From NCBI RefSeq assembly GCF_054482525.1, contig NZ_CM137006.1: a DNA stretch of 64,000 nt; one strand, written 5' to 3'. This document shows positions 41,176 to 54,533 of the stretch, piece by piece. The notes beneath the pieces are model-generated. The model did no database searches. It had not been told where the DNA came from and worked only from the letters and a program-made list of their open reading frames with translations. The translations under genes and the position numbers were made by a program. How positions within the stretch are numbered: position 1 is the first letter of the stretch; each line of letters begins with the position of its first letter.

Positions 41176-42378
41176 TTACACTACCGCATGTAAGATTCTA
41201 CGTACAGAGTGTAGATCAATCAAATAGTCTGAATACCACTGCATCATCTCTCTTCGCCCCTCCAGATATTGCGCATGGTTGTACGTCCCACGAATCGCAT
41301 TCTTATCGACATGCGCAAGCTGGGTTTCAATCCATGCCGTGTTGAACCCTTCCTCGTGCAAAATCGTACTCATCGTGTGACGGAAACTATGCCCCGTTAC
41401 CTTCCCCGTATACCCAATCCGTTTGAATACCTGATTAATACTCGCTTCACTCATCGTTTTACGTGGATCATTGCGCCCTGGGAACACCAAAGGATATTGC
41501 CCGGACATTACTTTGAGCTGTTGTACGATTTCTAGCGCTTGGGTAGAGAGGGGTACAAGATGGGGCCGTTTCATCTTCATACGCTCTGCAGGTATTTCCC
41601 ACACCGCTTTCTCAAGATCAAACTCACTCCAGAAAGCACCTCGAAGCTCGCCAGTACGAACTCCCGTAAGGATAAGCAGACGAGCGGCAAGAACAACTAA
41701 CGGGCTTCCTGTATAACCTGCGAGAGCTTTAAAGAAGTCTGGTAACTCCTCTACTGACAGGAAGGGATAATGCTTCGATTCATGCCCTGACATCGCGCTG
41801 GTTAGGTCCGCTGCAGGATTGTATTCCGCGCGACCTGTAACGATGGCATAACGAAAGACTTCGCTGCAGCGCTGGCGAACCTTCTTGGCCTTCTCTGTCG
41901 CGCCACGGCTTTCGATTCGACGCAGCACATTAAGCAGAACCAGCGGTTTGATTTCATTCACTGGCAGTTGGCCGATATAGGGGAAAATATCTTTATTGAA
42001 GGCTTCGATAATATCGGAGGCATAGCCTTCTGACCACCGGCTCACCTTAGTACCGTGCCACTCAAGCGCCACAGACTGGAACGTGTTGTTGAGCTGCACA
42101 TCGCGAACCAGCTTTTCTTCTTTCTTTGCGAAAGACGGGTCGATACCCTCGGCCAGCTTTTTCTTGGCTTCATCACGCAGAGCCCTCGCTTGTGCAAGGG
42201 AAACAGCCGGATAGACCCCAAAAGCCATACGCTTCTCTTTTCCATTGAAGCGATATTTCATTCGCCAGTATCGAGAACCAGAGGGAACGACTTCAAGATA
42301 CAAGCCAGCACCATCTGCCAGCTTATAGGCTTTCTCTTTGGGTTTAGCAGCGTCTACCTGTCGCGCATTAAGCTTCAT
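41176..42378 (-). CDS. P4-type tyrosine integrase
   Basis: Start trimmed to MKLNARQV; catalytic motifs GVRTGELRG, HSFRHT, LAHVD..RGTYNH; immediately adjacent to the tRNA-Thr 3' end. Confidence 0.85.
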   Translation of the reverse strand: MKLNARQVDAAKPKEKAYKLADGAGLYLEVVPSGSRYWRMKYRFNGKEKRMAFGVYPAVSLAQARALRDEAKKKLAEGIDPSFAKKEEKLVRDVQLNNTFQSVALEWHGTKVSRWSEGYASDIIEAFNKDIFPYIGQLPVNEIKPLVLLNVLRRIESRGATEKAKKVRQRCSEVFRYAIVTGRAEYNPAADLTSAMSGHESKHYPFLSVEELPDFFKALAGYTGSPLVVLAARLLILTGVRTGELRGAFWSEFDLEKAVWEIPAERMKMKRPHLVPLSTQALEIVQQLKVMSGQYPLVFPGRNDPRKTMSEASINQVFKRIGYTGKVTGHSFRHTMSTILHEEGFNTAWIETQLAHVDKNAIRGTYNHAQYLEGRREMMQWYSDYLIDLHSVRRILHAVV

Positions 42379-42534
42379 TGGGGGCATCTCCCTGGACCGA
42401 ACACAGAATGCCCCCACTTATGCCCCCAACTGCGACTTGATTTCGGTTGAGTCCAGTTGATAACAGGAGATAAGATACGGGCCAGAAACCGCAGTATACG
42501 GGCTTTTAGTTGATTTCGGTAGACTTGGGAAGAG

Positions 42535-42558
42535 TTTGAAATGGTGCCGATAATAGGA
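42535..42558. repeat. Proximal att-like repeat overlapping the tRNA-Thr 3' end
   Basis: tttgaaatggtgccgataatagga; partner at 18971..18992. Confidence 0.5.
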
Positions 42559-42617
42559 GTCGAACCTACGACCTTCGCATTACGAATGCGCTGCTCTACC
42601 AACTGAGCTATATCGGC
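42542..42617 (-). tRNA. thrW: tRNA-Thr (anticodon CGU)
   Basis: Reverse complement reads GCCGATATAGCTCAGTTGGTAGAGCAGCGCATTCGTAATGCG...TTCGACTCC...CACCA: cloverleaf arms, CGT anticodon in the loop, encoded CCA. Confidence 0.85.
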
Positions 42618-48995: not shown

Positions 48996-50453
48996 GTGTC
49001 TGAACTGTCTCAATTATCTCCACAGCCGCTGTGGGATATTTTTGCCAAAATCTGTTCTATTCCTCACCCGTCCTATCATGAAGAGCAACTCGCTGAATAC
49101 ATTGTTGGTTGGGCAAAAGAGAAAGGTTTCCATGTCGAACGCGATCAGGTAGGTAATATCCTGATTCGTAAACCTGCTACCGCAGGTATGGAAAATCGTA
49201 AACCGGTCGTCTTGCAGGCCCACCTCGATATGGTGCCGCAGAAAAATAACGACACCGTGCATGACTTCACTAAAGATCCTATCCAGCCTTATATTGATGG
49301 TGAATGGGTTAAAGCGCGCGGCACCACGCTGGGTGCGGATAACGGCATTGGTATGGCGTCTGCGCTGGCGGTTCTGGCTGACGAAAACGTGGTTCACGGC
49401 CCGCTGGAAGTGCTGCTGACCATGACCGAAGAAGCCGGTATGGACGGTGCTTTTGGCTTACAGAGCAACTGGTTGCAGGCTGATATTCTGATTAACACCG
49501 ACTCCGAAGAGGAAGGTGAAATCTACATGGGTTGCGCGGGGGGTATCGACTTCACCTCCAACCTGCATTTAGATCGTGAAGCGGTTCCAGCTGGTTTTGA
49601 AACCTTCAAGTTAACCTTAAAAGGTCTAAAAGGCGGTCACTCCGGCGGTGAAATCCACGTTGGCCTGGGTAATGCCAACAAACTGCTGGTGCGCTTCCTG
49701 GCGGGTCATGCGGAAGAGCTGGACCTGCGCCTTATCGATTTCAACGGTGGCACACTGCGTAACGCCATCCCGCGTGAAGCCTTTGCGACGATTGCTGTCG
49801 CAGCTGATAAAGTCGACGCACTGAAATCTCTGGTGAATACCTATCAGGAGATCCTGAAAAACGAGCTGGCAGAGAAAGAGAAAAATCTGGCATTGCTGCT
49901 GGACTCTGTTGCGAACGATAAAGCTGCCCTGATTGCGAAATCTCGCGATACCTTTATTCGTCTGCTGAACGCTACCCCGAACGGTGTGATCCGCAACTCC
50001 GACGTGGCAAAAGGTGTGGTCGAAACCTCCCTGAACGTCGGTGTGGTGACCATGACTGACAATAACGTAGAAATTCACTGCCTGATCCGTTCTCTGATCG
50101 ACAGCGGTAAAGACTACGTGGTGAGCATGCTGGATTCGCTGGGTAAACTGGCTGGCGCGAAAACCGAAGCGAAAGGCGCGTATCCAGGCTGGCAGCCGGA
50201 CGCTAATTCTCCGGTGATGCACCTGGTGCGTGAAACCTATCAGCGTCTGTTCAACAAGACGCCGAACATCCAGATTATCCACGCGGGCCTGGAATGTGGT
50301 CTGTTTAAAAAACCGTATCCGGAAATGGACATGGTTTCTATCGGGCCAACCATCACCGGTCCGCACTCTCCGGATGAGCAGGTTCATATCGAAAGCGTTG
50401 GTCATTACTGGACACTGCTGACTGAACTGCTGAAAGAAATTCCGGCGAAGTAA
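48996..50453 (+). CDS. pepD: Cytosol non-specific dipeptidase PepD
   Basis: 485 aa M20-family peptidase; GTG start. Confidence 0.9.
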   Translation: MSELSQLSPQPLWDIFAKICSIPHPSYHEEQLAEYIVGWAKEKGFHVERDQVGNILIRKPATAGMENRKPVVLQAHLDMVPQKNNDTVHDFTKDPIQPYIDGEWVKARGTTLGADNGIGMASALAVLADENVVHGPLEVLLTMTEEAGMDGAFGLQSNWLQADILINTDSEEEGEIYMGCAGGIDFTSNLHLDREAVPAGFETFKLTLKGLKGGHSGGEIHVGLGNANKLLVRFLAGHAEELDLRLIDFNGGTLRNAIPREAFATIAVAADKVDALKSLVNTYQEILKNELAEKEKNLALLLDSVANDKAALIAKSRDTFIRLLNATPNGVIRNSDVAKGVVETSLNVGVVTMTDNNVEIHCLIRSLIDSGKDYVVSMLDSLGKLAGAKTEAKGAYPGWQPDANSPVMHLVRETYQRLFNKTPNIQIIHAGLECGLFKKPYPEMDMVSIGPTITGPHSPDEQVHIESVGHYWTLLTELLKEIPAK

Positions 50454-50509
50454 TTATTTGATTTGCTGCCGGATGGCGTTTAATCGCCTTCCGGCAGTTT
50501 CATCCTTCA

Positions 50510-50767
50510 TTATCCTTCGATAAAAGCCATCCCTGTAAATGTCCGTCGCGGGTTGCCACGTTCAATTTGATGATGGAACATTCGCCACTGCGATTTCAGC
50601 GCCGCGCTATTTTCCTGTTGCTGTTGTTCCAGCTTCCAGGCAATCAGCAATCGCGCCAGCCGCTTGTTAGCATGCCCAGAAACCAGTTTTTGCGCCCATG
50701 ATGAGGCCGATACGGACTCGGACAAATCCACTGAATAGTGCCGCACCAACTTTCGCTTAATGCCCAT
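50510..50767 (-). pseudogene. prfH: Possible release-factor-homolog (prfH-like) fragment
   Basis: Short ORF in the position where K-12 carries truncated prfH; no GGQ motif seen, so assignment is positional. Confidence 0.3.
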
Positions 50768-50809
50768 GCGTTATCGCCATCCAGAGAAATCAGCGCCGAA
50801 CGCAGCGTG

Positions 50810-51076
50810 TCAGAGTAGCGGCCCGTTTCTGTTTCCAGCACCGTTACCGCGACGTCTTGCCGGGTAAAAACGGCCTGCGGAGAAGAACGCTGCGCCAATC
50901 GGGTAGCCGCGTCCGGGGTGTAAATCTGGCATCCCTACTACGCGCTGCATGTTGGGTAAATTTGCCGTGGTGTGTAATTGTTGGATCGCTAAACTCTCGA
51001 TCCACAGGCCATCAGATGCGATGGTAAATACCGCATCGGATAAGGGACGAATAGATTTGCCCATGTACCATCCCAT
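50810..51076 (-). pseudogene. ykfJ: RtcB-like RNA ligase fragment (ykfJ-like)
   Basis: [17 protein letters not shown] resembles a conserved RtcB active-site segment; ORF only 88 codons. Confidence 0.5.
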
Positions 51077-51308
51077 TTATACTCGTCATACTTCAAGTTG
51101 CATGTACTGCGACTCGAATTATTTAGAGTATATAAATATAAAAATCAGGAAATGGCAGACGAATCCAGGGCAAGAAAAAAGAATTAATCCTGGAAAGGTC
51201 TGCAAAGAGTCATTGATAAAGGATTTGTCATGATTTACCTCCTTGCAGTTTGTGGAATAAGAAAACGCGCACATACCAGGCGGGTGTTATTTTCATTGCA
51301 AGCTGAAT

Positions 51309-51761
51309 TTAATGTTGCGGTTTATATCGCATAGAAAAATTAGTAAACCACGCTCCCCTGCATTCAACGCGCTGCTGCTTAACTGTCTGAAAACCATAAC
51401 GTTCAAAAAAGGGTTTTGCGGTTATGCTTGCGTCCACCGTAAGTTCGGATTCAGACTTAATCAAAGGTTTTAACAAAGCGCTGGCAACCCCACGGCGGGT
51501 GTATTCAGGGTCAACAAATAACATATCGATATAGTGTTCAATGCGGGAAATAAAACCAACCGGTTGTGCATTAATGATCGCAACCCATACTTGTGATTTC
51601 GCGAGTTTCTCCTTCCAGCGAGATTCGTCAATCTGCGCCCAGGCGGCAATTTGTTGTGGTGAATAATGCTGACTGGCGGTCATCGTAACCGCTCTAAGGA
51701 AAATAGCGCATAGTTGCTGAAAATCGCCAGGCTGATAGTTTCTTATTTGTATGTTATTCAT
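51309..51761 (-). CDS. yafP: GNAT acetyltransferase YafP
   Basis: 150 aa GNAT fold; conserved dinB-yafNOP position. Confidence 0.8.
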   Translation of the reverse strand: MNNIQIRNYQPGDFQQLCAIFLRAVTMTASQHYSPQQIAAWAQIDESRWKEKLAKSQVWVAIINAQPVGFISRIEHYIDMLFVDPEYTRRGVASALLKPLIKSESELTVDASITAKPFFERYGFQTVKQQRVECRGAWFTNFSMRYKPQH

Positions 51762-51770
51762 AATATAAAT

Positions 51771-52169
51771 TCAAAAACGCATGCGAAACGCTTCTGCCAT
51801 TTTCCCAATTTTATGCATTTGGTTGTTATCTCGAGCCAGTTTATGAGGTTCAGGTTTCAGAATGGCAATGAGCAACCATGCTTGCTCATCAAACGCACCC
51901 TGACAATATACCAAATGCGCTTCGTCATTCGTTCTGCTGAATTGGCGCAACTGTGGCGGAAATGGATTATTCACATTTGCCAGATGAATATGAGCAACTC
52001 GCTCAAATTTGATTAATGGCCAGGTAAACGAGTCGTCGTAGAGTGCATCGCGACCAAATATATCTGGCAAAACACCGTCACGCTTATAGGAAATAAAATC
52101 CGCCGTTAACGCATCAAGTTCCTCTGCTGTAAGTTGCAGGCAAATAAGTTTTGTTTTGAATACCCGCAT
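51771..52169 (-). CDS. yafO: Ribosome-dependent mRNA interferase toxin YafO
   Basis: 132 aa; matches YafO; follows yafN. Confidence 0.8.
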   Translation of the reverse strand: MRVFKTKLICLQLTAEELDALTADFISYKRDGVLPDIFGRDALYDDSFTWPLIKFERVAHIHLANVNNPFPPQLRQFSRTNDEAHLVYCQGAFDEQAWLLIAILKPEPHKLARDNNQMHKIGKMAEAFRMRF

Positions 52170-52171
52170 CC

Positions 52172-52465
52172 TTATTCCTTAAAGTCATTGAAATCATCAT
52201 CCGTCATATCATTAAGATATTGTTCAGCGCGGCGTGTAATTTCCTCTAATCTTGCGGCACTCGGACGGAAGCGCGCCTTAACCAGTTTTTTCTCCTCTTG
52301 TTCAGCAAGCATGTCCATTAACGCTTCGAATGCGCTGGCACTTAAGAGATATCCTGCGGGGCGATTATTAGAAAGAACCGCAACTGGTTGATCAATAAAG
52401 TATTTAGCTGGGTTTTTACGTAACTCAGTGATATTGACCGATTTTTCAGCGAGAATTCGATGCAT
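52172..52465 (-). CDS. yafN: Antitoxin YafN (Phd/YefM family)
   Basis: 97 aa; N-terminal Phd-like fold. Confidence 0.8.
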   Translation of the reverse strand: MHRILAEKSVNITELRKNPAKYFIDQPVAVLSNNRPAGYLLSASAFEALMDMLAEQEEKKLVKARFRPSAARLEEITRRAEQYLNDMTDDDFNDFKE

Positions 52466-53642: not shown

Positions 53643-54533
53643 CTAGCGCGTTCGCTGCGAATGCACCTGCTGCTTATCCAGCTTTTGCACCAGCGGCTGC
53701 ACCACTTTATCCCCATGCTGACCAAAGTATTGATACAGCGTATCGGACGCACTTTTGGTCAGCACCATAATCTCAATGCGTCGGTTGCCCGCGCTTTGCG
53801 GATTTTTCGCGTCCAGCAGCATCTGGTCCGCCATCGCGCTCACCTGCATCACTTTATCTTCCGGCATTCCGGCCTCTTCCAGCACCCGACGAGCCGAAAG
53901 CGCGCGATCGCCCGAAAGGTTCCAGTTGTTGTAGATATTGTTTTTGTAGGCCATCGCATCGGTATGCCCGGTAATAATAATTTTGTTATCGAGCGAGTCG
54001 AACACTGGCGCGAGCTCCACCAGCAAAGTTTTAAAGAACGGCATAATCTGTGCGCTGCCGCGTTCAAACATATTGCGGTTCTGGTCATCTTTAATCAGCA
54101 CGCGCAGTCCCTGGGGAACAATCTCCATCTCCAGATTCGCTTCCATATGTGCATCACGGGCAATGGTGTTGATACTGGTCGCCAGCTCGCCAAGCTCAGT
54201 GGCTGATTTCTTCTTCAGCAGCGCCGTTTTCTCATTGACGTCACGCGCTTTTTTCTCCGTCTCTTCCGGCACCGCCACGGTGGCAGGTTTTGGCGGATGA
54301 GACGGGCTGATTTTATTTAACGGCGACAACCCGCCGCCATTGAAAATCGACTGCCCGTGCAGCGCGGCGATAATGCTTTCACGCTCGGATTTACTGACGC
54401 TGTTGACAATCAACTTTATCGTCGTCACCAAAGGGGCCGAGCGTATTTCCGAGGTTTCTGCCCGCTTTACCTTAGACGCGATGCCCGGTAAACAGATGGC
54501 GATTGACGCCGATCTTAACGCTGGGTTGATCAA
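53643..54533 (-). pseudogene. lafU: Flag-2 lateral flagellar motor MotB-like relic (lafU)
   Basis: OmpA/MotB-like C-terminal domain present but N-terminal TM segment absent; 5' end runs into the lfhA fragment. Confidence 0.6.

Follow-up and report, generated by a model that had tools for sequence, protein, structure and literature searches.

Fragments of an rtcB2-prfH operon between pepD and yafP on an Escherichia coli chromosome

PrfH enters the A site of ribosomes that carry a break in the 16S rRNA between A1493 and G1494, made by ColE3-CT or CdiA-CT(ECL) (PMC9304027). The 3'-phosphate of A1493 is recognised by the PrfH residues F9, G10-P12, R83, H86, R88 and R189, and peptide release is carried out by the GGQ motif, the Q122N and Q122E mutants being inactive (PMC9304027). 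Once release has freed the 30S subunit, its 16S rRNA is resealed by RtcB2, with H294N serving as the inactive control (PMC9304027). E. coli ATCC25922, which has an intact operon, is protected from ColE3; BW25113, in which the operon is truncated by the deletion termed A below and by no other, is ColE3-sensitive, and knockouts of its truncated genes have no phenotype (PMC9223846). A deletion of approximately 1000 nt in E. coli K-12 was described by Baranov et al. 2006 (PMC1586002) and is mentioned again in PMC9304027. Here we describe the same locus in a 64-kb stretch of DNA, called the window throughout, the source of which is an E. coli chromosome.

Identity and position of the fragments

The initial annotation had proposed a decayed rtcB-prfH module, represented by two short minus-strand ORFs, one of them with an RtcB-like segment, at a site where other enterobacteria carry an RtcB paralog and a release factor H. 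Both ORFs were present exactly as described (85 and 88 aa), the quoted RtcB-like motif was located in the longer one, and the expectation about relatives was borne out by strain JNEC-KY208, which holds an intact pair between pepD and yafP. The locus and its ORFs are as follows.

48996-50453, plus strand: pepD, intact flanking gene (ORF list; PGAP annotation of identical genomes)
50510-51064, minus strand: rtcB2-prfH remnant, three fragments between pepD and yafP
50510-50767, minus strand: ORF of 85 aa; TIGR03072 (release_prfH), E = 1.1e-15, profile positions 143-200 of 200
50644-50898, minus strand: ORF; TIGR03072 (release_prfH), E = 1.7e-26, profile positions 31-94 of 200
50810-51076, minus strand: ORF of 88 aa; NF007153 (RNA ligase RtcB family), E = 4.1e-30, ORF residues 5-73 against profile positions 1-69 of 379
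51309-51761, minus strand: yafP, intact flanking gene (NF007338, E = 1.7e-97, full length; PGAP annotation)

The arrangement is that of the E. coli rtcB2-prfH locus: the flanks are pepD and yafP (the last gene of dinB-yafN-yafO-yafP), the coding strand is opposite to that of pepD, and rtcB2 lies upstream of prfH. The 88-aa ORF also matched TIGR03073 (release_rtcB) in NCBIfam with an E-value of 2.1e-28, and Pfam RtcB (PF01139) with an E-value of 3.6e-5 and 23.6 bits. The cut-offs for full-length members are 407 bits for NF007153, 166.65 bits for TIGR03072 and 27 bits for PF01139. The NCBIfam scores were 105 bits for the RtcB ORF and 93.0 and 57.7 bits for the PrfH ORFs; since all three are far below the full-length cut-offs, the ORFs are fragments. 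With Pfam alone, the PrfH pieces gave no match and the RtcB match was sub-threshold, and their identity needed the NCBIfam equivalog models together with direct tblastn using intact orthologues.

For tblastn, the queries were the intact RtcB2 and PrfH of JNEC-KY208 (L001), an E. coli genome with a complete operon. This search, which the initial annotation had proposed, returned E-values of 8e-44, 4e-47 and 3e-35 and placed three fragments, not two, each in its own reading frame. The fragments and the junctions between them are listed below.

50858-51064, minus strand: rtcB2 5' fragment, codons 1-69 of 369 (tblastn, E = 8e-44; NF007153; PGAP pseudogene in identical genomes)
50858-50864: junction of deletion A, 997 bp, imperfect 7-bp microhomology TGCCGGG
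50671-50862, minus strand: prfH middle fragment, codons 32-95, rRNA-recognition domain (tblastn, E = 4e-47; TIGR03072 positions 31-94)
50672-50675: junction of deletion B, 169 bp, 4-bp microhomology ATGC
50510-50680, minus strand: prfH 3' fragment, codons 149-204 and stop codon (50510-50512), in the third frame (tblastn, E = 3e-35; TIGR03072 positions 143-200)

Homology puts the rtcB2 start codon at 51064 (MGKSIRPL...) and not at the upstream ATG at 51076. No further copy of RtcB2 or PrfH was found elsewhere in the 64-kb window, and the spacer ORFs at 50949-51233 (plus strand) and 51119-51274 (minus strand) had no family match. No promoter-like sites lay on the minus strand in the yafP-rtcB2 spacer, the scan of 50400-51800 giving no more hits than the shuffled-sequence count; this promoter and terminator scan is uninformative on transcription in either direction.

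The two deletions and the residues they remove

In JNEC-KY208 the order is pepD - prfH (615 bp) - rtcB (1110 bp) - yafP, and rtcB and prfH overlap by 4 bp as a translationally coupled pair. The deletions in the window were mapped by blastn offsets and by a five-allele MAFFT alignment against this intact allele, and both are established by that alignment. Deletion A removes RtcB2 residues 70-369, the overlap of the rtcB2 stop codon with the prfH start codon, and PrfH residues 1-31; its length is 990 bp by non-overlapping BLAST blocks and 997 bp when the 7-bp microhomology is counted. It is the K-12 deletion already published (PMC1586002). Deletion B removes PrfH residues 96-148, including the GGQ at 120-122, and is also frameshifting.

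The end points of deletion A were identical in the K-12-like allele L003, in L006, in L007 and in the window. Since they are equal in every truncated allele examined, the data fit a single ancestral event. Deletion B was absent from L003 and L007 and present, with identical end points, in the more divergent L006. Two microhomology-flanked deletions destroyed the operon, deletion A probably as one ancestral event and deletion B presumably later, in a sub-lineage.

The rtcB2 fragment has clear N-terminal homology (65 of 69 residues, 94%, identical to intact E. coli RtcB2 by tblastn), and a full-length match of approximately 369 aa above the cut-off is lacking, 300 of the 369 residues being deleted. 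As 997 is not divisible by 3, the N-terminal part of RtcB2 reads into prfH DNA out of frame; in the 88-aa ORF, residues 1-69 (ending FYPA) are followed by an out-of-frame tail of 15 residues derived from prfH DNA. In RtcB2, VGNDIGCGM (residues 71-79) is aligned to a conserved segment, VGFDINCGV, of an RtcB of solved structure, and both NDIGCGM (residues 73-79) and H294 lie within deletion A, so that the active site is missing from the fragment.

For PrfH, residues 32-95 were 62/64 identical (97%) to the intact protein and residues 149-204, at 50680-50513, 53/56 identical (95%), both by tblastn; 84 of the 204 residues are deleted. The protein lies in two pieces in different frames, neither of which approaches the 166.65 bits of a full-length member. 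The middle fragment keeps R83, H85, H86 and R88 and is without a start codon of its own. Residues 1-31 of the recognition domain are gone, and R83, H86 and R88 stand in one frame and R189 in another; given that the pocket residues are split between frames, no single polypeptide can hold the whole pocket. The intact JNEC-KY208 PrfH is nearly identical to chain 8 of PDB 7SA4 (E = 7.8e-135), and its GGQ, with Q122, falls within the segment that the 169-bp deletion removed from the window.

Deletion A cost RtcB2 the segment aligned with DIxCG and His294, and PrfH the F9-P12 wall of the pocket for the A1493 3'-phosphate, together with the prfH start codon and the coupling of its translation to rtcB2. 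Deletion B took the GGQ with the catalytic Q122 and shifted the frame. As read from the alignment, no catalytic residue of RtcB2 or PrfH survives. Since deletion B removes the GGQ, a hydrolase-competent PrfH fragment is impossible here, unlike in K-12.

Allele frequency, annotation and surroundings

The deleted segments were used as queries against 5426 complete E. coli genomes. A query spanning the junction was unsuitable, as nearby pieces are joined and deleted and undeleted alleles look alike. The 990-bp core of deletion A was present in 2715 of the 5426 genomes and absent from approximately half; the 169-bp segment of deletion B was present in 4756 and missing from approximately 670 (12%). 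About half of sequenced E. coli thus carry a pseudogene of this kind, and the case in the window is ordinary.

In strains 1190 and 19KM1776, whose alleles are identical to that of the window, PGAP marks the two genes as pseudogenes. The prfH entry reads 'frameshifted; incomplete; missing N-terminus', and the RtcB-family CDS is flagged as incomplete and as a pseudogene. In the identical genomes L002 and L005, the PGAP note on the RtcB fragment states that 'mutations in this gene result in a compromised ability for drug-inducible mexXY expression'. This note is a carry-over from the Pseudomonas aeruginosa homologue ArmZ/PA5471 and is misleading for E. coli.

Differences from the K-12-like allele number 17 in the 555 sites of the three fragments (5/162, 5/186 and 7/207) and 0 in the 110 sites of the adjacent pepD end and spacer. 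Every change specific to the window (Y4S, D19G and V63A in RtcB2; R179W in PrfH) is non-synonymous. This pattern appears to fit relaxed constraint, the counts being too small for a formal test.

Two repeats flank the fragments.

50466-50497: 16-nt inverted repeat, 88% complementary, 0 nt between the arms (repeat search)
51078-51132: short ERIC-like palindromic element, 25-nt arms and 5-nt loop (repeat search)

The inverted repeat sits between the convergent ends of pepD and prfH and is identical in 5/5 alleles, while the pseudogene fragments vary; it is probably a hairpin terminator shared by pepD and prfH, or a pepD terminator still under constraint. The ERIC-like element lies 14 bp upstream of the rtcB2 start codon, outside the gene fragments. 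In the K-12-like allele, 72 extra bp occur at the centre of the palindrome (L003 2385-2456) and contain both ERIC-PCR primer sites with 1 mismatch each, and the palindrome at 51078-51132 is the shell of an ERIC-type repeat. The 72-bp core is absent from both the window and the intact-operon allele of JNEC-KY208. Deletion B accompanies the core in L006 and is found without it in the window; the resulting four allele combinations imply recombination or repeated gain or loss of the ERIC core. A candidate isrH RNA at 51076-51142 was rejected, its match being sub-threshold and explained by the ERIC-type repeat; the other Rfam match was a chance similarity to a snoRNA.

Several features of the wider region were also recorded. 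The window has yafO (51771-52169) and yafN (52172-52465); JNEC-KY208 (L001 3577-5081) is without the yafN-yafO toxin-antitoxin pair, dinB being followed directly by yafP. At 53643-56112 the window carries a K-12-type remnant of the Flag-2 lateral flagella, with lafU abutting a 5'-truncated flhA/lfhA pseudogene. Strain 1190, although its rtcB2'-prfH' allele is 100% identical, keeps a complete Flag-2 cluster downstream of dinB, indicating that the Flag-2 and rtcB2-prfH lesions are unlinked and that the region is mosaic. A tRNA-Thr(CGT) at 42542-42617 (minus strand) is adjoined by an integrase-sized ORF of 413 aa at 41176-42417 (minus strand). Collinearity with strain 1190 ends at 42209, within this ORF, so the island of the window at the tRNA-Thr integration site differs from that of strain 1190.

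Interpretation and comparison with known systems

Given the clear homology to functional genes and the lesions incompatible with function, with PGAP flags on identical alleles, we are highly confident that the chromosomal rtcB2-prfH operon of E. coli survives at 50510-51064 as a non-functional remnant. The pseudogenisation proposed at the outset, with nothing but fragments left, is therefore upheld by tblastn, alignment and PGAP alike. The term 'decayed' holds for the outcome and fails for the mode, which was two discrete deletions (997 and 169 bp) and not diffuse decay. The feature is already known: it is the K-12-type rtcB2'/prfH' pseudogene pair plus a further deletion.

Considering that the catalytic residues are gone, that the pocket is split and that the BW25113 data (PMC9223846) concern a truncated operon of the same kind, we infer that the locus is functionless. 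To judge from its sequence, it would give no protection from ribotoxins that act on the decoding centre, such as colicin E3, and would be subject to neutral drift. By comparison with PMC9223846, no protection from ColE3 is to be expected at this locus.

It could be argued that the deletions arose in sequencing or assembly and that the true genome has an intact operon, but nothing was seen that favours this. The 1001-bp sequence of the locus is 100% identical in strain 1190 and matched by 34 records at an identity of at least 99%; 19KM1776 and SCU-102, two further independent complete genomes, match the 8-kb stretch around the remnant at 100% identity; and the divergent L006 shares the end points of the 169-bp deletion. 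We regard such an artefact as practically negligible. That the true content of the locus is a non-coding element, either a small RNA resembling isrH or a regulatory hairpin of the ERIC type, with the protein similarity being secondary, is very improbable. It would draw on the 25-nt arms of the inverted repeat at 51078-51132 and on the sub-threshold minus-strand match to isrH, which reaches 26.8 bits where the gathering score is 45 (E = 2.8e-5). However, this match covers positions 151-218 of the 280 in the model, lies outside the fragments in the spacer between rtcB2 and yafP, and coincides with the arms of the repeated ERIC-type element, the left arm of which has further matches at other sites in E. 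coli genomes. Nor would a non-coding element explain why the proteins match within 50510-51064 at E-values of 1e-35 to 1e-47.

A further alternative is that the fragments are still used, with an RtcB2(1-69) peptide or a truncated PrfH being functional, or that the truncated allele is maintained by selection owing to a cost of the intact operon. In favour, truncation is very common, about half of the complete E. coli genomes lacking the deletion-A segment; in RtcB2 the start codon and first 69 codons remain open, and an ORF of 84 or 88 aa could be translated; and, according to a reviewer of PMC1586002, the K-12 PrfH fragment can be over-expressed. Set against this, the over-expressed fragment went to inclusion bodies (PMC1586002), and knocking out the truncated genes gave BW25113 no phenotype in the presence of ColE3 (PMC9223846). 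The catalytic parts are all lost, namely the RtcB2 region with H294 and the PrfH GGQ with Q122; the PrfH pieces lack a start codon and stand in different frames; and the extra 169-bp frameshifting deletion and the window-specific non-synonymous changes are as expected without constraint. We therefore consider residual use highly unlikely. In the same vein, there is a slim chance that the truncated allele is not neutral debris, the deletions having been favoured repeatedly or RtcB2(1-69) with its tail forming a small protein with a new role. If the deletions were selected, the intact module might be costly or be exploited by some toxin or phage, to give examples, and the allele series (intact, A, and A with B, the ERIC core being present or absent in each) would then be a record of selection and not of drift.

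With the locus taken as a non-functional remnant, the strain is predicted to be, like K-12, without a chromosomal repair defence against toxins of the colicin E3 type. The relevance of this prediction is limited to studies of competition by colicins or contact-dependent inhibition, and the finding otherwise matters mainly for correct annotation. The approximately equal split between intact and truncated alleles in E. coli offers a natural contrast for the ecology of ribotoxin defence, a contrast already implicit in published work.

Among the related systems, P. aeruginosa has a homologous two-gene arrangement, armZ (PA5471, RtcB-like) with PA5470 (prfH). ArmZ is an anti-repressor of MexZ; there is no sign of such a role in E. 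coli, and the copy in the window is a fragment. The intact RtcB2-PrfH module of ATCC 25922 and CFT073 (PMC9304027, PMC9223846; PDB 7SA4) is orthologous DNA at the same locus. Relative to the intact E. coli module, the fragments in the window are 94-97% identical in protein, with all catalytic residues lost and the frames broken. The rtcB2'/prfH' remnant of E. coli K-12 resembles that of the window in its position between pepD and yafP, in the end points of the 997-bp deletion and in the retention of RtcB2 residues 1-69. The K-12 pair is named ykfJ and prfH (b0235/b0236). The window differs from K-12-like strains in being without the 72-bp ERIC core upstream of rtcB2, and from K-12 in carrying the extra 169-bp frameshifting deletion that took the PrfH GGQ region.
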